Source: Escherichia phage slur07
Length of the DNA stretch: 64,000 nucleotides
Strand: one strand, 5' to 3'
Sequence record: NC_028780.1
Of this stretch, positions 1,278-59,005 are shown one piece after another. Below the pieces are notes generated by a model. The model made no database searches. It had not been told where the DNA came from and was given only the letters and a program-made list of their open reading frames with translations. Both the position numbers and the translations under genes were made by a program. Numbering within the stretch: the first letter of the stretch is position 1; each line of letters opens with the position of its first letter.

Positions 1278-1304
1278 GGGAGAGCCTCGGCTCTCCCTTT
1301 TTTA
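1278..1304 (+). terminator. intrinsic terminator (GC hairpin GGGAGAGCC/GGCTCTCCC plus T-run)
   Basis: Perfect inverted repeat followed by TTTTTTATTTT directly after the small ORF. Confidence 0.6.
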
Positions 1305-1328
1305 TTTTAAAAATTTTTTCACAAAACG

Positions 1329-1358
1329 GTTTACAACCAAAGCATACTGTGGTACTAT
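1329..1358 (+). promoter_or_regulatory. T4-type early (sigma70) promoter upstream of motA
   Basis: -35 GTTTACA at 1329-1335, 17-bp spacer, extended -10 TGgTACTAT at 1350-1358, A/T-rich upstream element; near-identical copy at 18519-18548. Confidence 0.55.
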
Positions 1359-1399
1359 ACAACTATCAACTACTGATACAGAATTACGGAGATTAGAAA

Positions 1400-17438: not shown

Positions 17439-17469
17439 TTGCTTATTATAAATAGATTATAATTATCTC

Positions 17470-17537
17470 ACTGACCAGCTATGAGGTCATACATCGTCAT
17501 AGCACCAACTGTTAATTAAATTAAAAAGGAAATAAAA
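17470..17537 (+). promoter_or_regulatory. gene 32 translational operator region (leader with A/U-rich gp32-binding tract)
   Basis: Leader ...GTTAATTAAATTAAAAAGGAAATAAAAATG directly upstream of gene 32; in T4 this leader is the autoregulatory operator. Confidence 0.5.
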
Positions 17538-18446
17538 ATGTTTAAACGTAAATCTACTGCTGAACTCGCTGCACAAATGGCTAAACTGGCTGGAAATAAA
17601 GGTGGTTTTTCTTCTGAAGATAAAGGCGAGTGGAAACTGAAACTCGACAATGCGGGTAACGGTCAAGCAGTAATTCGTTTTCTTCCGTCTAAAAATGATG
17701 AACAAGCACCATTCGCAATTCTTGTAAATCACGGTTTCAAGAAAAATGGTAAATGGTATATTGAAAACTGTTCATCTACCCACGGTGATTACGATTCTTG
17801 CCCAGTATGTCAATACATTAGTAAAAATGATCTGTACAACACTGACAATAAAGAGTACAGTCTTGTTAAACGTAAAACTTCTTACTGGGCTAACATTCTT
17901 GTTGTAAAAGACCCAGCTGCTCCAGAAAATGAAGGTAAAGTATTTAAATATCGTTTCGGTAAGAAAATCTGGGATAAAATCAACGCGATGATTGCGGTTG
18001 ATGTTGAAATGGGTGAAACTCCAGTTGATGTAACTTGTCCGTGGGAAGGTGCTAACTTTGTACTGAAAGTTAAACAGGTTTCTGGATTTAGTAACTACGA
18101 CGAATCTAAATTCCTGAATCAATCTGCGATTCCAAACATTGATGATGAATCTTTCCAGAAAGAACTGTTCGAACAAATGGTTGACCTTTCTGAAATGACT
18201 TCTAAAGATAAATTCAAATCGTTTGAAGAACTGAGCACTAAATTTGGTCAAGTTATGGGAACTGCTGTGATGGGCGGTGCTGCTGCAACTGCTGCTAAGA
18301 AAGCTGATAAAGTTGCTGATGATTTGGATGCATTCAATGTTGATGACTTCAATACAAAAACTGAAGATGATTTTATGAGCTCAAGCTCTGGCAGTTCATC
18401 TAGTGCTGATGACACGGACCTGGATGACCTTTTGAATGACCTTTAA
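17538..18446 (+). CDS. 32: gp32 single-stranded DNA-binding protein
   Basis: 302 aa; near-identical to T4 gp32 including zinc-site Cys/His residues and acidic C-terminus [12 protein letters not shown]. Confidence 0.95.
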
Positions 18447-18468: not shown

Positions 18469-18494
18469 GGGGACCTCTAGGGTCCCCTTTTTTA
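18469..18494 (+). terminator. intrinsic terminator after gene 32
   Basis: GGGGACC-TCTAG-GGTCCCC hairpin followed by TTTTTTATTT. Confidence 0.65.
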
Positions 18495-18518
18495 TTTCAA
18501 AAATTTTTTCACAAAACG

Positions 18519-18548
18519 GTTTACATACTACAAGGACTGTGGTACTAT
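18519..18548 (+). promoter_or_regulatory. T4-type early promoter (second copy of the 1329-1358 element)
   Basis: -35 GTTTACA, -10 TGgTACTAT; about 70 bp near-identical to 1298-1367. Confidence 0.55.
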
Positions 18549-18591
18549 ACAACTATCGGCAATACTGCTGATGATTAAAGAGGAAAACAAT

Positions 18592-18819
18592 ATGGCTAAA
18601 GTTGATATTGACATCGTTGATTTTGAATATATTGAAGAAATTATTCGTAATCGTTATCCTGAACTTAGTATTACAAGCGTGCAAGATTCTAAGTTTTGGA
18701 GTATTCAAATCGTTATTGAAGGTCCTCTTGAAGACCTCACCCGCTTTATGGCTAATGAATATTGTGATGGCATGGATTCTGAAGACGCAGAATTTTACAT
18801 GGGGCTGATTGAGCAATAA
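18592..18819 (+). CDS. hypothetical protein (frd.3-like position)
   Basis: ORF with AGAGGA Shine-Dalgarno before ATG 18592 ([17 protein letters not shown]...); acidic small protein. Confidence 0.55.
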
Positions 18820-19560: not shown

Positions 19561-20387
<827 letters not shown>

Positions 20388-20406: not shown

Positions 20407-20754
20407 ATGAATTTTAATTATTACCCTATTCTATTAGAAAAAGACACGAAACAACCAAAATGGCAGGGTCCTCAGTTTATTAAAGGTGTCTATCAATTAG
20501 TAGTTCCTAAAGATAAGATTTATAGTAGTTGTTTTACTGAATCCGCTTGCAGTATTTTCGGTAATAGTTCTCCGTATTGGAATTTTGACATAAAGTTGGA
20601 TAGAAATATCGATATTTGGTTGAAAGCTATGGATATTGGTAATATCACGTTTGATGAGAATAATTATCATATTATTGGTCGCTTTTCCAAACGCGGTAAA
20701 GAATTATATTTCACGCCTGAAATTGAGAGAAAATTTGATGCTAAACCGTATTGA
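20407..20754 (+). CDS. hypothetical protein inserted between frd and td
   Basis: 115-aa ORF with no counterpart I can place in T4, where frd and td abut. Confidence 0.55.
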   Translation: MNFNYYPILLEKDTKQPKWQGPQFIKGVYQLVVPKDKIYSSCFTESACSIFGNSSPYWNFDIKLDRNIDIWLKAMDIGNITFDENNYHIIGRFSKRGKELYFTPEIERKFDAKPY

Positions 20755-20799
20755 TTATTTAGCTTCATAAAATGTATTATAATTTATATAAGGTACTAA

Positions 20800-21660
20800 A
20801 TGAAACAATACCAAGATTTAATTAAAGACATTTTTGAAAATGGCTATGAAACCGATGACCGAACGGGCACAGGAACAATTGCTTTGTTCGGTACTAAATT
20901 ACGCTGGGATTTAAGTAAAGGTTTTCCTGCAGTAACAACTAAGAAGCTCGCCTGGAATGCATGCATTGCTGAGCTTTTATGGTTTATTTCCGGTTCTACC
21001 AATGTTAATGATTTACGTCTTCGCACTCATGGTAGTCTTATTCAAGGCAAAACTATTTGGGACGATAACTATGAAAACCAGGCTAAAGACCTAGGATATC
21101 ATAGTGGTGAACTTGGTCCTATATACGGTAAACAATGGCGTGATTTCGGTGGTGTGGATCAATTAGTTGAAACTATTGATCGTATTAAAAAATTACCAAC
21201 TGATCGACGTCAAATCGTTTCAGCATGGAATCCAGCTGAAATCAATCAAATGGCATTACCGCCCTGTCATATGTTCTATCAGTTTAATGTGCGTAATGGT
21301 TATCTTGATTTACAATGGTACCAAAGAAGTGTAGATGTTTTCTTGGGATTGCCATTCAACATTGCCTCGTACGCTGCCTTGACGCATATTGTGGCTAAGA
21401 TGTGTAATCTTATCCCAGGAGATTTGATATTTTCTGGTGGTAATACTCACATCTATATGAATCATACTGAGCAATGTAAAGAAATTTTACGTCGTGAGCC
21501 TAAAGAACTATGTGAACTTAAAATTGATTGGCCTATAGAGTTTGGAAATTGTGACACCGAAACACAGCTTTACTGGTTAACTGAATACATGAAACCGAAA
21601 GATTTTATCCTTGAAAATTATGAATCGCATCCAGCAATTAAAGGGAAAATGGCAATATGA
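20800..21660 (+). CDS. td: thymidylate synthase, intron-less
   Basis: 286 aa continuous ORF matching T4 Td exons joined; active-site region PPCHMFYQF present; no group I intron. Confidence 0.93.
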
Positions 21661-27300: not shown

Positions 27301-27303
27301 GTT

Positions 27304-27333
27304 GTTTACAAGTCCCTCGTGTTGTGTTATAGT
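27304..27333 (+). promoter_or_regulatory. early promoter (repeat family 2, copy A)
   Basis: -35 GTTTACA 27304-27310, 17-bp spacer, TGtTATAGT extended -10; 54 bp with one mismatch to 43120-43173. Confidence 0.5.
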
Positions 27334-27364
27334 AGTCTTACTAACATAACATGAGGACTTTATG

Positions 27365-34117: not shown

Positions 34118-34122
34118 GTTGA

Positions 34123-34147
34123 GGACTCCTTCGGGAGTCCTTTTTTA
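34123..34147 (+). terminator. intrinsic terminator with UUCG tetraloop
   Basis: GGACTCC-TTCG-GGAGTCC followed by TTTTTTATTTT. Confidence 0.7.
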
Positions 34148-34170
34148 TTTTCCAAAGATTGCATAAAGTT

Positions 34171-34204
34171 GTTTACAGTATAGCTCCTTTGTGATAGTAT
34201 TATC
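34171..34204 (+). promoter_or_regulatory. candidate early promoter
   Basis: -35 GTTTACA at 34171-34177 with downstream A/T-rich -10 candidates (TAGTAT/TATTAT). Confidence 0.4.
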
Positions 34205-34562: not shown

Positions 34563-34603
34563 GTTTACTTTGGTACAGGATATGATATTATATACCTGTA
34601 CCG
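34563..34603 (+). promoter_or_regulatory. early promoter embedded in a stem-loop
   Basis: -35 GTTTAC at 34563-34568; 8-bp inverted repeat GGTACAGG (34572-34579) / CCTGTACC (34595-34602) with the A/T-rich -10 candidate TATTAT in the loop. Confidence 0.45.
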
Positions 34604-41062: not shown

Positions 41063-43120
41063 ATGGAACTTATTACAGAATTATTTGACGGCGCTTCGGC
41101 GCCGGTTGTTAACTTAAATCCTAAGCATAAAATACCACAAATTTTTGCTATCCAAGCCGGCGAAGAAAGCGTGCTTCCTGGATTTAGATTTTGTACATAC
41201 ACCTCTGGTGGTGATACAAATAAAAACGTTAAGCCAGGCGATAAAATGATGCATATCGTAATGATAGGTGTCAATGAGAAACTATCATTAGTTAAGCTTA
41301 AAAACTTGGGTGGAAATCCAATTGGTGTCATTAATGCCGTTTTTGATACTGCTCTTCAAACAATGAAACAGTATAAAATCGACGCATGCCTATTCCGCGT
41401 ACTAAAGAGTAAAACAAATGGCGCAGCTCGTCAAATGCAAGTTATTGCTGACCGTTTAGTACGTACTAAAGGAGCAGGTCGATATGTTCTCTTAAAGGAA
41501 ATCTGGGACTATGATAAGAAATATGCATATATTATGGTTTACCGTAAAAATGCCAATTTAGAAGACATTCCAGGTGTACCTCCTATTTCAACTGAGTTAT
41601 TCACAAAAGTTGAATCAAAGGTTGGTGATGTTTATGTAGACGTTAAAACAGGTAATGCTGTTCCTAAAGCTGTCGCTGTTGCTGCTTCTATTGCTTTAGA
41701 AAATGATAAGCGCACTGATCAAGCTGTTATTCAGAAAACTAAAATTAGTCGTCGATTAGCAGCACAAGCTCAATATTCTACTGTTGATGCTTCACTTCAG
41801 GGTGATAGCTTCGCTGCCAAGAAATATCAAGAGTTTGAATCTAAAGTTCCGGTATATAAAGCAGAAGGACCAATGAACTCTGGCGTTATCCAGATTGGTT
41901 CAAACTTCAGCAAAGGAGCTATCGGTGGTATGAGAAGTGCTTCTCGTTTTAAATCTAATGATTATGAACTAGAAAGTTTCCGAAATCATATTGCATTGAC
42001 CCATGCACGTTTACGCGATCCATCTATCAAGCTGCAGAGCGATATAACATATCAAGGTTCTCAAGAATATTTAAAGAATAAAGAATTCTTTGATTATAAA
42101 ACTGATAAAATTTTAAGCGATCTTGCTGACATTAATATTTCTAATAGCTTTGATGTTATTAAGAAAATTATCAATGATTTAGTTAAAGATTCTAAAGCTA
42201 CATCAGATGAAAAGACAGCTATTATTCAATTTGTAATGAATGGCATTTATAAATTGATTAATGAATCTGCTGCTCAGGCATATGAATACGCAAGCACCGA
42301 AGTAACTCCAAAAGGACTGACTCAGGCTGAATCTGATGTAATTGAAGATTATTGTGCAGATTCATATGTTGAAATGAACTCGTTCCTTTTGGGTAAACCA
42401 GATTCTACCCGTGAAGAATACATGGAAAGAGCTATTAATCACATCGAGACGTTAGATTCTGCCTTTGCCAAAGGATCAGTTCTTCCTCCAGGAACTACAC
42501 TTTACCGTGGACAAGAAGTTACCTTTAAAACTTTGCGTCATAACATTGAAAACAAAATGTTCTATTTCAAGAACTTCGTATCGACATCACTTAAACCAAA
42601 TATCTTCGGTGAGCATGGTAAAAACTATATGGCTCTAGATGATTCCGGCGCAGTATTTTCTGGCGAAGGAGAAGGTTCCGTTGATGCAGAAGATTTAATG
42701 CATATGGGTAGTCATTCTACATATGCCAATGAAGATGCTGAAACTAGCGTAGGTATGGTAATTAAAGGGGCTGAGCGAATCAAAGTTATCGTTCCAGGTC
42801 ATTTATCAGGATTTCCATCAGAAGCTGAAGTTATTCTACCACGTGGAATTTTACTGAAGATTAATAAAGTAAGTACGTACTTTATGAAAGAAACTGCTTA
42901 TAACAAGTATCTAATCGAAGGTACAATCGTTCCTCCTTCTGAACAATTAGAGGAATCGGTATATGATGGCGACCATTTAATGGAAACTGGTGAAGTTCGT
43001 CCAATGGCTGGATTTAATCAATTCCTTGTAGAAGAATCAAAAGAAGAGGAAAACGAAGTTTCTCAAATCTTGGCTTCTTTGGTTAACATCAACGGAATGT
43101 CTAAAAAGTTCAAAATGTAG
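41063..43120 (+). CDS. Alt paralogue (second ADP-ribosyltransferase)
   Basis: 685 aa; same fold signature with YRGQ, FVSTS, SEAEVILPRG; conserved N-terminal third, divergent central region. Confidence 0.85.
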   Translation: MELITELFDGASAPVVNLNPKHKIPQIFAIQAGEESVLPGFRFCTYTSGGDTNKNVKPGDKMMHIVMIGVNEKLSLVKLKNLGGNPIGVINAVFDTALQTMKQYKIDACLFRVLKSKTNGAARQMQVIADRLVRTKGAGRYVLLKEIWDYDKKYAYIMVYRKNANLEDIPGVPPISTELFTKVESKVGDVYVDVKTGNAVPKAVAVAASIALENDKRTDQAVIQKTKISRRLAAQAQYSTVDASLQGDSFAAKKYQEFESKVPVYKAEGPMNSGVIQIGSNFSKGAIGGMRSASRFKSNDYELESFRNHIALTHARLRDPSIKLQSDITYQGSQEYLKNKEFFDYKTDKILSDLADINISNSFDVIKKIINDLVKDSKATSDEKTAIIQFVMNGIYKLINESAAQAYEYASTEVTPKGLTQAESDVIEDYCADSYVEMNSFLLGKPDSTREEYMERAINHIETLDSAFAKGSVLPPGTTLYRGQEVTFKTLRHNIENKMFYFKNFVSTSLKPNIFGEHGKNYMALDDSGAVFSGEGEGSVDAEDLMHMGSHSTYANEDAETSVGMVIKGAERIKVIVPGHLSGFPSEAEVILPRGILLKINKVSTYFMKETAYNKYLIEGTIVPPSEQLEESVYDGDHLMETGEVRPMAGFNQFLVEESKEEENEVSQILASLVNINGMSKKFKM

Positions 43121-43149
43121 TTTACAAGTCCCTCGTGTTGTGTTATAGT
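43120..43149 (+). promoter_or_regulatory. early promoter (repeat family 2, copy B)
   Basis: 54-bp near-identical copy of 27304-27357; -35 GTTTACA overlaps the TAG stop of the alt paralogue. Confidence 0.5.
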
Positions 43150-43180
43150 AGTCTTACTGACATAACATGAGGAACACAAA

Positions 43181-43471: not shown

Positions 43472-43477
43472 AAATAT

Positions 43478-43495
43478 GGGGACCGAAAGGTCCCC
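43478..43495 (-). terminator. hairpin terminator downstream of gene 54 (palindromic)
   Basis: GGGGACC-GAAA-GGTCCCC; U-rich tract on the minus-strand 3' side. Confidence 0.55.
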
Positions 43496-43499
43496 ATTG

Positions 43500-54893: not shown

Positions 54894-56024
54894 ATGGCTT
54901 TTACAGTTGATATAACTCCTAAAACACCTACTGGAGTTATAGATCAGACTCAGCAGTTTACTGCTACACCCAGTGGTCAAACTGGAGATGGACCTATTAC
55001 ATATGCTTGGACTGTTGATGATGCACCACAGGAAGAAACGTCAGCAACTTTTAGTTATGTACTAAAAGGACCTGCCGGTCAAAAAACTATTAAAGTAGTT
55101 GCAACCAATCAAGTTGCCGATAGTAGTCCCGAAACAGCTGAAATTAGTACAACTATCACAGTTCAAAATAAGACACAAACAACTACCTTGGCAATAACTC
55201 CTGGTAGCCCTGATGCTGGAGTAATCGGAACAGCTGTTGAATTTACCGCTGCTTTAGATTCACAGCCACCAAGTGTATCTGCTACGTATCAGTGGTATGT
55301 AGATGATTCTCCTGTTAGTGAAGCAACTTCCGCTACATTTAGCTATACTCCAACTACAAGTGGAGTAAAAAGAATTAAATGCGTAGCCCAAGTAACAGCG
55401 ACAGATTATGATGCAAAGGAAGTTACTTCTAATGAAGTGTCATTGACAGTTAATAAGAAAACAATGAATCCACAGGTTACATTGACTCCTCCTTCTATTA
55501 ACGTCCAGCAAGATGCTTCGGCTACATTTACGGCTAATGTTACGGATGCTCCAGAAGAAGCACAAATCGAATATTCATGGAAGAAAGATTCTTCTCCTGT
55601 AGAAGGGTCAACTAATGTATACACCGTTGATACATCATCTATTGGAAGTCAAACCATTGAAGTTACTGCAACTGTTACCGCCGCTGATTATGATAGCAAA
55701 ACTATTACAGCAGAAGGCCAAGTTCAAGTGACTGATAAAGTTGCTCCGGAACCAGAAGGTGAATTACCTTATGTTCATCCTCTTCCACATCGTACTTCAG
55801 CTTATATCTGGTGCGGTTGGTGGGTTATGGATGAAATCCAAAAAATGACTGAAGAAGGTAAAGATTGGAAAACTGACGACCCAGATAGTAAGTACTACTT
55901 GCATCGTTACACTCTTCAGAAGATGATGAAAGACTATCCAGAAGTTGATGTTCAAGAATCACGTAATGGATACATCATTCACAAAACTGCTTTAGAAACT
56001 GGTATCATCTATACCTATCCATAA
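54894..56024 (+). CDS. hoc: Hoc, highly immunogenic outer capsid protein (Ig-like domains)
   Basis: 376 aa matching T4 Hoc, with repeated Ig-like modules and capsid-binding C-terminus. Confidence 0.92.
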   Translation: MAFTVDITPKTPTGVIDQTQQFTATPSGQTGDGPITYAWTVDDAPQEETSATFSYVLKGPAGQKTIKVVATNQVADSSPETAEISTTITVQNKTQTTTLAITPGSPDAGVIGTAVEFTAALDSQPPSVSATYQWYVDDSPVSEATSATFSYTPTTSGVKRIKCVAQVTATDYDAKEVTSNEVSLTVNKKTMNPQVTLTPPSINVQQDASATFTANVTDAPEEAQIEYSWKKDSSPVEGSTNVYTVDTSSIGSQTIEVTATVTAADYDSKTITAEGQVQVTDKVAPEPEGELPYVHPLPHRTSAYIWCGWWVMDEIQKMTEEGKDWKTDDPDSKYYLHRYTLQKMMKDYPEVDVQESRNGYIIHKTALETGIIYTYP

Positions 56025-57609: not shown

Positions 57610-57616
57610 ATAAAAA

Positions 57617-57640
57617 GGGACCGAAAGGTCCCTTTGTTTT
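57617..57640. terminator. bidirectional terminator between convergent rnlB and gene 24
   Basis: Palindromic GGGACC-GAAA-GGTCCC with T-runs on both sides. Confidence 0.6.
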
Positions 57641-58922
57641 ATTCATCAACGATAATTTTTGGTAGCTTAACACCTAATAAAACAGACAAATCTGAACGAC
57701 CCGCCATTTTATCCATGTCTCCACCATCAATTACTCTTGCTTCTTTTTCATCTTTTGCTACGGTGTAAGGATTTGCTGATAAAGCATATCTAACTAATAA
57801 ACCGATAGATGGCTGCAAACTTTCTGGGTCAACTACAACTTTAAATGCACCTACATGTTCAGGGTCATCTAAGTCGAGACCTTCTGTATACGGAGCATAG
57901 AAAATTGAACCAACAATTTCTTTTTCACCGATATTTTCTACTACCCCCACGATTACATAGTCTAATGGGCTGTTAGTATCGCAATAAAGCGGTAAACCAT
58001 TAGCTAAGAACCCGTAGGCATTTTGTGAAAGATATTTATCATCTTCCGGTTTATGTTTTAACCAACCTGATGCAGCAAGAATCGCAGCAGCACGAGCTGA
58101 AGCTACACAAAATGTTGCTGTATAAGTTGATTCTTTTTGGATATGTGAAACCATTTCACATACCATTCGATATAATGAACGACCAGCTTCAGGTGCAGAT
58201 GCATAACTCAAATCGATGAATCCATTATCAGTAATTCCTGTAACTTTATAGCGTTTTGACACTGTAATCAAAGACTGCAGAATATCTTTATTGATTTCAT
58301 CTGCCATTTCAGTTGCAAGCAAATCTTCCAAGAAATTAGGAGCATCGAATCCATTTGCTTCTAAATCTTGCGCTAATTCAACTGTGATGCCAGTTTTAAG
58401 TTTACGAGATTTAACTGCGGTTTGCCATTTATTAATCTGGAATCTAGCATCCGCAATTTCACTATCAGAGCTTTCAAATTTGCTTGTTGACGCTGCGTCA
58501 GAAAATAGACGAACCTTTAAAAGAACAATTGCAATCTGAAGAGCTAACTCTAAGTCGCTTTCTTCAATATCAGCAAATGGAGTATCTTCTAATACTTTAT
58601 AAACGATATTATTATATTTGAATAAATCGCCTTTATTGAGAGTTAATTTAGACTCTTCTGTTAATTCTGTGATTTGTTCTCGGTCTACATATCCAGCTTC
58701 GCCAGCGTAAGTAGCACCAGTTTTAAATGTAAATTCATTGTCTGGGTTAAGGTATTTGATACCATAAAAAGCAGCAACAGGTTGATTAGTTCTTTGCGTT
58801 GCTACAATGTCAGAATATATTAATTTAGTGGTAGCGCGAGTCAAAGCAACGAGATTTGGGCGACCGATTGAGTTGCTATTCGTTGTGGTTGATTCGCGCA
58901 GAAGTTCGTTGATTTTAGCCAT
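57639..58922 (-). CDS. 24: gp24 capsid vertex protein
   Basis: 427 aa matching T4 gp24. Confidence 0.93.
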   Translation of the reverse strand: MAKINELLRESTTTNSNSIGRPNLVALTRATTKLIYSDIVATQRTNQPVAAFYGIKYLNPDNEFTFKTGATYAGEAGYVDREQITELTEESKLTLNKGDLFKYNNIVYKVLEDTPFADIEESDLELALQIAIVLLKVRLFSDAASTSKFESSDSEIADARFQINKWQTAVKSRKLKTGITVELAQDLEANGFDAPNFLEDLLATEMADEINKDILQSLITVSKRYKVTGITDNGFIDLSYASAPEAGRSLYRMVCEMVSHIQKESTYTATFCVASARAAAILAASGWLKHKPEDDKYLSQNAYGFLANGLPLYCDTNSPLDYVIVGVVENIGEKEIVGSIFYAPYTEGLDLDDPEHVGAFKVVVDPESLQPSIGLLVRYALSANPYTVAKDEKEARVIDGGDMDKMAGRSDLSVLLGVKLPKIIVDE

Positions 58923-58957: not shown

Positions 58958-58974
58958 CCATAAAAACAACTAAA

Positions 58975-58990
58975 GGGACCCGAAGGTCCC
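58975..58990 (-). terminator. terminator hairpin downstream of gene 23 (UUCG loop)
   Basis: Minus strand reads GGGACC-UUCG-GGUCCC followed by a U-rich tract. Confidence 0.6.
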
Positions 58991-59005
58991 TTAAATCGTC
59001 AAAGA

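Follow-up and report, generated by a model that had tools for sequence, protein, structure and literature searches.

Genomic context of the repeated block

The window analysed here is a stretch of 64,000 nt from Escherichia phage slur07 (NC_028780.1), a T4-type (Tequatrovirus) genome that is read in reverse-strand orientation relative to the T4 map and is 95-97% identical to many Tequatrovirus genomes. Two copies of a short block are present on its + strand. Copy 1 is located between motA.1, a small ORF of 49 aa (1123-1272, + strand) that is the orthologue of T4 motA.1, and motA, whose ATG lies at 1400; copy 2 is located between gene 32, which encodes the ssDNA-binding protein (17538-18446, + strand, assigned from the ORF list and the annotation of T4 and its relatives), and frd.3, whose ATG lies at 18592 (reading frame checked). 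Both blocks are found at identical intergenic sites in T4 (motA.1|motA and 32|frd.3). This context, a small ORF followed by motA and gene 32 followed by frd.3, had been proposed in an initial annotation made from the sequence alone, and it matches both the ORF list and the T4 orthologues; T4, to which that annotation had pointed for comparison around gene 32 and motA, carries both elements.

It was further proposed that the copies flank the variable regions that follow them. On the frd side this is correct, since the region 3' of copy 2 is mosaic, with a diverged frd.2 and no td intron when compared with T4. On the other side it is not, as T4 and the slur07 window are collinear, with 97% identity, in the motA-arn-asiA region 3' of copy 1, which does not vary between them. 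The copies do not jointly flank one variable region, and each of them heads its own early transcription unit. The interval between them contains the tail-fibre genes 34-38 together with rnh, 33, 59 and 32 and is collinear with T4, which rules out the possibility that the pair brackets a mobile 17-kb segment; because essential genes lie between the copies, the pair in the window cannot mediate a viable deletion.

Several differences in gene content from T4 were recorded in the same part of the map. The missing td intron is the one that carries I-TevI in T4 (window position about 20797-21352), two small ORFs are extra relative to T4 (19561-19806 between frd.1 and frd, and 20407-20754 between frd and td), and segG, which is located between genes 59 and 32 in T4, is absent from the window (17439-17475).

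Extent and identity of the two copies

A repeat search of the window recovered copy 1 (1295-1367, + strand) and copy 2 (18485-18557, + strand) as one direct-repeat family of 73 nt with 88% identity and no gaps, a result with which pairwise alignment agrees. The pair is thus recovered by the kind of self-comparison that had been envisaged for it, and its identity falls within the range of 85-90% first estimated by eye. The spacing between the copies is 17,190 bp. In copy 1, the block runs from the end of a hairpin stem through a T-run, an A5T6 upstream tract, a -35 element, a spacer, a TGg motif and a -10 element to the +1 region.

The likeness is concentrated in two blocks that are separated by a differing patch of 11 nt in the -35/-10 spacer; apart from this patch, the mismatches between the copies amount to one T/C difference. 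The first block covers about 40-44 nt in the alignment, from the last C residues of the stem through TTTTTTATTT(T/C)AAAAATTTTTTCACAAAACGGTTTACA, and the second one covers 21 nt (CTGTGGTACTATACAACTATC). The upstream 27-mer AAAAATTTTTTCACAAAACGGTTTACA is exact at 1309-1335 and 18499-18525, and the downstream 21-mer is exact at 1347-1367 and 18537-18557, each with two occurrences in the window. No additional match to either of these sequences was detected in the window when up to three mismatches were allowed, and the number of matches expected by chance was 0.00 in 100 dinucleotide-preserving shuffles. The hairpin stems immediately 5' of the repeat (1277-1298 and 18469-18487) are unlike each other, so that the original description of differing stems next to a conserved promoter part is confirmed by the distinct hairpins and the exact 27-mer and 21-mer.

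Predicted terminator halves

The terminator scan identified a hairpin at each site on the + strand. The copy 1 hairpin (1277-1298) has a 9-bp stem and a 4-nt loop and is followed by the T-run TTTTTATTTT at 1299-1308; its RNA fold has an energy of -19.5 kcal/mol (z = -5.0). The copy 2 hairpin (18469-18487), which is the gene 32 terminator, is followed by the T-run TTTTTTATTT at 18488-18497 and folds with -15.2 kcal/mol. At both sites, a GC-rich stem-loop and a T-run are located 3' of a stop codon, as in intrinsic terminators, compared with 0.1 such sites expected in shuffles. The copy 1 hairpin is annotated as a terminator in the records of fPS-90 and OE5505, and the copy 2 hairpin in those of fPS-90 and wV7. 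When the whole window was scanned against Rfam at gathering thresholds, no match was returned.

Vectors for cloning and transposition make use of the rho-independent terminator of T4 gene 32 as a part (PMC4211546); a literature search for a link between the omega interposon and this terminator found no match. Like its T4 counterpart, the copy 2 hairpin is situated just past the gene 32 stop codon and consists of a GGGGACC...GGTCCCC stem followed by a T-run; unlike it, the hairpin of the window is the exact reverse complement, with the loop TCTAG in place of CTAGA. In fact, when compared with its T4 orthologue, each terminator hairpin of the window (1278-1297 and 18469-18487) is an exact reverse complement (GGGAGAGCCTCGGCTCTCCC versus GGGAGAGCCGAGGCTCTCCC, and GGGGACCTCTAGGGTCCCC versus GGGGACCCTAGAGGTCCCC), and both orientations are found among close relatives, which suggests a recurrent inversion of palindromic hairpins. 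Another small family of hairpins of the form GGGACC-(GAAA/TTCG)-GGTCCC is present in the window (43476-43497, 57614-57635 and 58973-58992; repeat family D10), and its members are terminator-like on one or the other strand.

Predicted promoter halves

The promoter scan placed a promoter core on the + strand in each copy. In copy 1 (1330-1358), which is identical in T4, the -35 element TTTACA (1330-1335) and the -10 element TACTAT (1353-1358) are separated by the 17-nt spacer ACCAAAGCATACTGTGG (1336-1352), which ends in TGg at 1350-1352. In copy 2 (18520-18548), the same -35 (18520-18525) and -10 (18543-18548) hexamers flank the 17-nt spacer TACTACAAGGACTGTGG (18526-18542). A TG before the -10 was flagged by the scan at both promoters, and both copies have the layout of T4-type early promoters, i.e., -35 (G)TTTAC(A/T), a spacer of 17+/-1 nt and -10 TAYWAT. 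The distance from the -10 to the ATG is 41 nt for motA and 43 nt for frd.3; both genes are on the same strand as their promoter and have a Shine-Dalgarno sequence, which is GGAG at 1388-1391 in the case of motA. From this geometry, transcription is predicted to start near 1365 (motA) and near 18555 (frd.3). A literature search for global mapping of T4 transcription starts or 3' ends yielded nothing usable.

In both copies, the end of the stem and the -35 are 31-32 nt apart, so the T-run and the A5T6 tract occupy the position of an UP element. The 30 nt 5' of the -35 contain 80-83% A+T, with T6AT4, A5 and T6 tracts. From what is established about promoter architecture, the T-run and the A5T6 tract probably act as an UP element, which would contact the C-terminal domain of the RNA polymerase alpha subunit. 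When examined by folding, dyad symmetry was only weak (z = -2.8 for the motA copy and -0.75 for the frd.3 copy of T4). The original proposal of a terminator followed by an early promoter is well supported by terminator and sigma-70 promoter scans that are positive at both sites, and the fPS-90 record concurs, in which a 'predicted early promoter' and a 'terminator' were annotated independently at both orthologous sites.

A third unit of this kind was detected on the + strand at 34122-34200 by the hairpin-plus-promoter scan and the promoter list. It consists of AGGACTCCTTCGGGAGTCCT and a T-run, with TTTACA located 30 nt after the end of the stem. Its upstream sequence is different, and it belongs more loosely to this architectural class. 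On its + strand, the window thus contains three terminator/promoter composites in which the stem and the -35 are 30-32 nt apart.

A dispersed family in T4-type phages

When the 88-nt cassette was compared with phage sequences by BLAST, 3387 places in 540 phage records were found, typically 6-7 (about 7) per Tequatrovirus genome. The number of copies initially given, two, is correct within the 64-kb window and does not hold genome-wide, where the family has about seven copies per genome. In T4, the family occupies 7-9 places in all, including 163.7 kb (motA), 146.9 kb (frd.3), 55.4 kb (nrdC.11|nrdC.10), 70.7 kb (before e.8), 167.1 kb (denB|ndd.6), 27.1 kb (43|imm.1) and 53.9 kb, and the part of the T4 map covered by the window includes only the motA and frd.3 members. 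The terminator is fused to the promoter in three T4 members (motA, frd.3 and nrdC.10), each with a different stem, and several members of the family also have the 5' leader in common as far as the Shine-Dalgarno sequence. The 88-nt cassette of copy 1 matches T4 with 100% identity from position 5 to position 88, and phage PST with 100% identity over all 88 nt. Both copies are present at the same loci in T4, T2, T6, RB14, PST, fPS-90 and hundreds of other records. The family also occurs at non-orthologous sites in other genera: in Moonvirus CF1, a cassette with a gene-32-like GGGGACC...GGTCCCC stem is located 3' of an ADP-ribosylase gene, and in Mosigvirus PhAPEC2 a cassette precedes e.8. A scan of IMG/VR with the exact 21-mer found 5 stretches only, too few for a survey.

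Homology versus consensus

All candidates of the form TTTAC-N16-18-TAnnnT with an A/T-rich upstream region were anchored on the -35 and -10 and compared pairwise over 67 positions. The motA/frd.3 pair shares 61 of these positions, compared with 29 for the median pair (sd 7.5), and ranks first among 666 pairs of T4 early promoters and first among 66 pairs in the window. Such a rank indicates homology rather than mere likeness to a consensus; judged from the sequences, copies 1 and 2 are genuine homologues that belong to a dispersed family. The likeness of the two blocks in itself could be accounted for by strong purifying selection on the RNA polymerase contacts alone after one ancient duplication.

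Functional convergence, by which independent strong promoters would have been selected to one extended consensus with neither common ancestry nor exchange, is the alternative that deserves most attention. An extended consensus is indeed common to T4 early promoters (PMC2988021), and the conserved blocks are those that RNA polymerase contacts (the UP-like tract, the -35, TGn/-10 and the +1 region), while the uncontacted spacer differs. However, other bona fide early promoters match at only about 29 of the 67 positions, as against 61 for motA/frd.3, and the identity of this pair spans the terminator T-run and the exact A5/T6 lengths, neither of which is kept by other strong early promoters. Together with the distribution of spacers described below, this makes convergence quite improbable.

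Even less probable is that the block mainly binds another phage or host factor, such as a recombination or replication protein, and that its promoter motifs are incidental. Arbiol et al. speculated that a DNA-binding protein may target the stem-loops of related elements (PMC2839356, see below), and some spacers are palindromic, for example type B (CATAAAGCTTTATG); yet the stems, which would be the target of such a protein, are the least conserved part of the block, whereas the conserved part has a textbook promoter geometry at the right distance from early genes with Shine-Dalgarno sequences, and the Rfam scan gives no hint of another element. Finally, a one-off recent segmental duplication unique to slur07 and with no regulatory or evolutionary role, as the two copies within the 64-kb window might suggest, is refuted by the presence of both copies at the same loci in T4 and its relatives and of more copies elsewhere in the genomes of these relatives and in other genera.

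A second paralogous pair of early promoters was observed in the window at 27303-27357 and 43119-43173, with 54 of 55 nt identical. Its similarity begins at the -35 (GTTTACA) and stops at the Shine-Dalgarno sequence (GAGGA), the upstream sequences showing no similarity; the T4 equivalents are located before alc (136335) and alt.-3 (123092).

Insertion and probable exchange at the cassettes

Spacers were compared at the 32|frd.3 site of 12 closely related phages with near-identical flanks, among which three discrete 17-nt spacer types could be distinguished. TAC(T/C)ACAAGGACTGTGG is carried by the slur07 window and ADUt and is nearest to the T4 promoter at 167085 (denB|ndd.6). The type of T4 itself, AGCATAAAGCTTTATGG, has its nearest T4 counterpart at another site in the promoter at 55383. 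The other nine phages (fPS-90, RB68, wV7, F1, REP1, Kha5h and three IMG/VR contigs) have TCCTTGTCCTTCCATGG, with variants of 1-3 nt in Kha5h and two of the IMG/VR contigs, and the nearest T4 promoter is that at 70695. Between each type and its nearest T4 promoter at another site there are 0-2 mismatches, as against 9-11 for the T4 orthologue; the copy 2 spacer, for example, departs from the orthologous T4 spacer at 9 of 17 positions and is similar to the spacer at 167085. At 32|frd.3, the mean pairwise difference is 0.30 for the spacer, compared with 0.024 for the following 60 nt.

Discrete spacer types on near-identical flanks could not arise by point mutation, but they could arise by a replacement of patches from paralogues. 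They also weigh against convergence, since the types are common to different sites and yet differ between orthologous sites in spite of about 97% identity in the flanks: spacers that cross sites and differ between orthologues require a transfer of sequence. The mosaic patterns in about 20 sequences suggest that this transfer may have taken place by gene conversion between paralogues. We tentatively propose, with chances that we would put slightly below even, that the 17-nt spacer is an exchangeable mini-module that moves among paralogous early promoters by short-patch gene conversion, and that the terminator hairpins flip as whole palindromes. The homology arms may be the upstream/-35 block of roughly 40 nt and the 21-nt -10/+1 block. 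If this proposal is true, orthologous promoters in 97%-identical phages carry different spacers, and the spacer possibly tunes promoter strength or the response to Alt-modified RNA polymerase.

Insertion at a cassette is seen in OE5505, fHoEco02 and SsoM_113, in which the motA.1 terminator and the upstream block continue directly into a type-B spacer and promoter, followed by an ORF of 75 aa, a second and different early promoter, and motA. The 75-aa ORF is missing from both T4 and the slur07 window, and the direct repeat CTATCAAATAAATGAACTGAAAC, which is present in both leaders, flanks the insert on either side. In ADUt, RB68, wV7 and F1, an extra ORF adjoins the frd.1 early promoter. The association of cassettes with such junctions is drawn from a handful of loci and not from genome-wide enrichment.

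In a T4-like IMG/VR contig (IMGVR_UViG_2974787500_000001, about 290-330), a 'attccaaaaaatttttt' upstream block resembling that of the T4 imm.1 and e.8 promoters takes the place of the gene 32 terminator and of the final codons of the gene, and the C-terminus of gp32 is altered.

Relationship to known systems

The early promoters of T4 belong to an 'uber' UP/-35/TGn/-10 class with extra consensus regions (Hinton 2010, PMC2988021), which out-compete host promoters for sigma-70 RNA polymerase upon infection (PMC2988021). Both copies have this layout, and copy 2 has its T4 orthologue in the promoter that follows gene 32. In addition, a composite motif of a terminator and an early promoter, named PeSL (promoter-early stem-loop), was reported to recur in the plastic regions of T4-like genomes, to extend to the Shine-Dalgarno sequence and start codon (ATG) of small genes and to mediate modular shuffling by homologous recombination (PMC2839356, PMC4122927). 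The slur07 copies share with PeSLs the order of stem-loop terminator, A/T-rich region, early promoter, and Shine-Dalgarno sequence with the ATG of a small gene, the occurrence of many dispersed and mutually similar copies per genome, the association with junctions of indels and replacements, and the PST/T4 consensus TTTACW-N17-TAYWAT (Comeau et al. 2014, PMC4122927), which fits both copies. The PeSLs of RB49 and phi1 have near-perfect TTGACA/TATAAT elements and polyG/polyC stems that are often located between or over the -35 and -10; in contrast, the stem of the slur07 copies is upstream and its T-run doubles as the A/T tract of the promoter. The formation of mini-circles, another feature of PeSLs, would not be viable for the 17-kb pair. 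The view of the block as a portable regulatory cassette, with which the analysis began, fits the PeSL concept (PMC2839356, PMC4122927) and is in line with both the spacer exchange and the OE5505-type insertion of an ORF at the cassette.

The 'stem-loop over the -10' layout of PeSLs was also noted among the early-promoter candidates of T4, 10 of 37 of which have a strong dyad bracketing the -10 (z < -2 versus shuffles). Examples are found at 57989, 20611, 129917, 73938, 7214 and 146142 in T4, with a window equivalent at 34564.

Repoila et al. 1994 (cited in PMC2839356) described promoter-associated shuffling at the internal-protein (IP) loci of T-even phages. The resemblance to these loci, and to 'moron' or integron-like cassettes, is that small accessory genes with their own promoter and terminator are exchanged via conserved regulatory linkers. 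The movement of morons is attributed to illegitimate recombination, and that of integrons to an integrase. Unlike in those systems, general homologous recombination on blocks of 20-40 nt would probably suffice here. T4-type recombination needs less than 50 bp of homology (Arbiol et al. 2010, PMC2839356), and the blocks of about 40 and 21 nt are long enough for it, which would explain the exchanges.

Proposed function

Taken together, each copy is very probably a T4-type composite of a terminator and a strong early promoter that belongs to a homologous family and forms a recombination-prone cassette of the PeSL type. Starting from what was observed, namely the anatomy, the size of the family, the homology beyond consensus, the mosaic spacers and the insertion junction inside the cassette, and relying on sequence and the T4 literature for termination, start sites, UP contacts and the recombination pathway, the following scheme may be proposed. 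The GC-rich hairpin and U-run would end the upstream transcript, which is that of the 52-motA.1 unit for copy 1 and that of gene 32 for copy 2. The T-run and A5T6 tract would then provide a very strong host sigma-70 promoter (TTTACA, 17 nt, TGg, TACTAT) with its UP-like region, and unmodified E. coli RNA polymerase would fire this promoter immediately upon infection to start the early units motA-arn-asiA (copy 1) and frd.3-frd (copy 2). In this way, the cassette would insulate neighbouring messages and restart early transcription of frd.3-frd and of motA, which encodes the middle-mode activator. The blocks that contact RNA polymerase would remain near-invariant while the non-contacted spacer and the stems are free to vary, and members of the family could exchange sequence, with the cassettes becoming junctions for the gain and loss of small ORFs.

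Nothing in the cassette finding is new in kind, as the cassette is already known from T4 early promoters and the PeSL family. The exchangeable spacer types and the inversions of whole hairpins at both terminators would be the only mildly new detail, and fine-scale spacer exchange, which is not spelled out in the PeSL papers, is a natural consequence of their model. The cassettes may be regarded as natural insulated 'landing pads' for swapped small accessory genes, which would be useful for the design of insertions in T4-type phages. With regard to annotation, the blocks would mark where the messages of gene 32 and 52-motA.1 end and where the early ones of motA and frd.3 begin, and they belong in genome records as regulatory features and not as ORFs. 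In the ADUt sequence, an annotated CDS for a 37-aa 'hypothetical protein' (1070-1180) spans the gene 32 terminator/promoter cassette and is almost certainly a spurious gene call.
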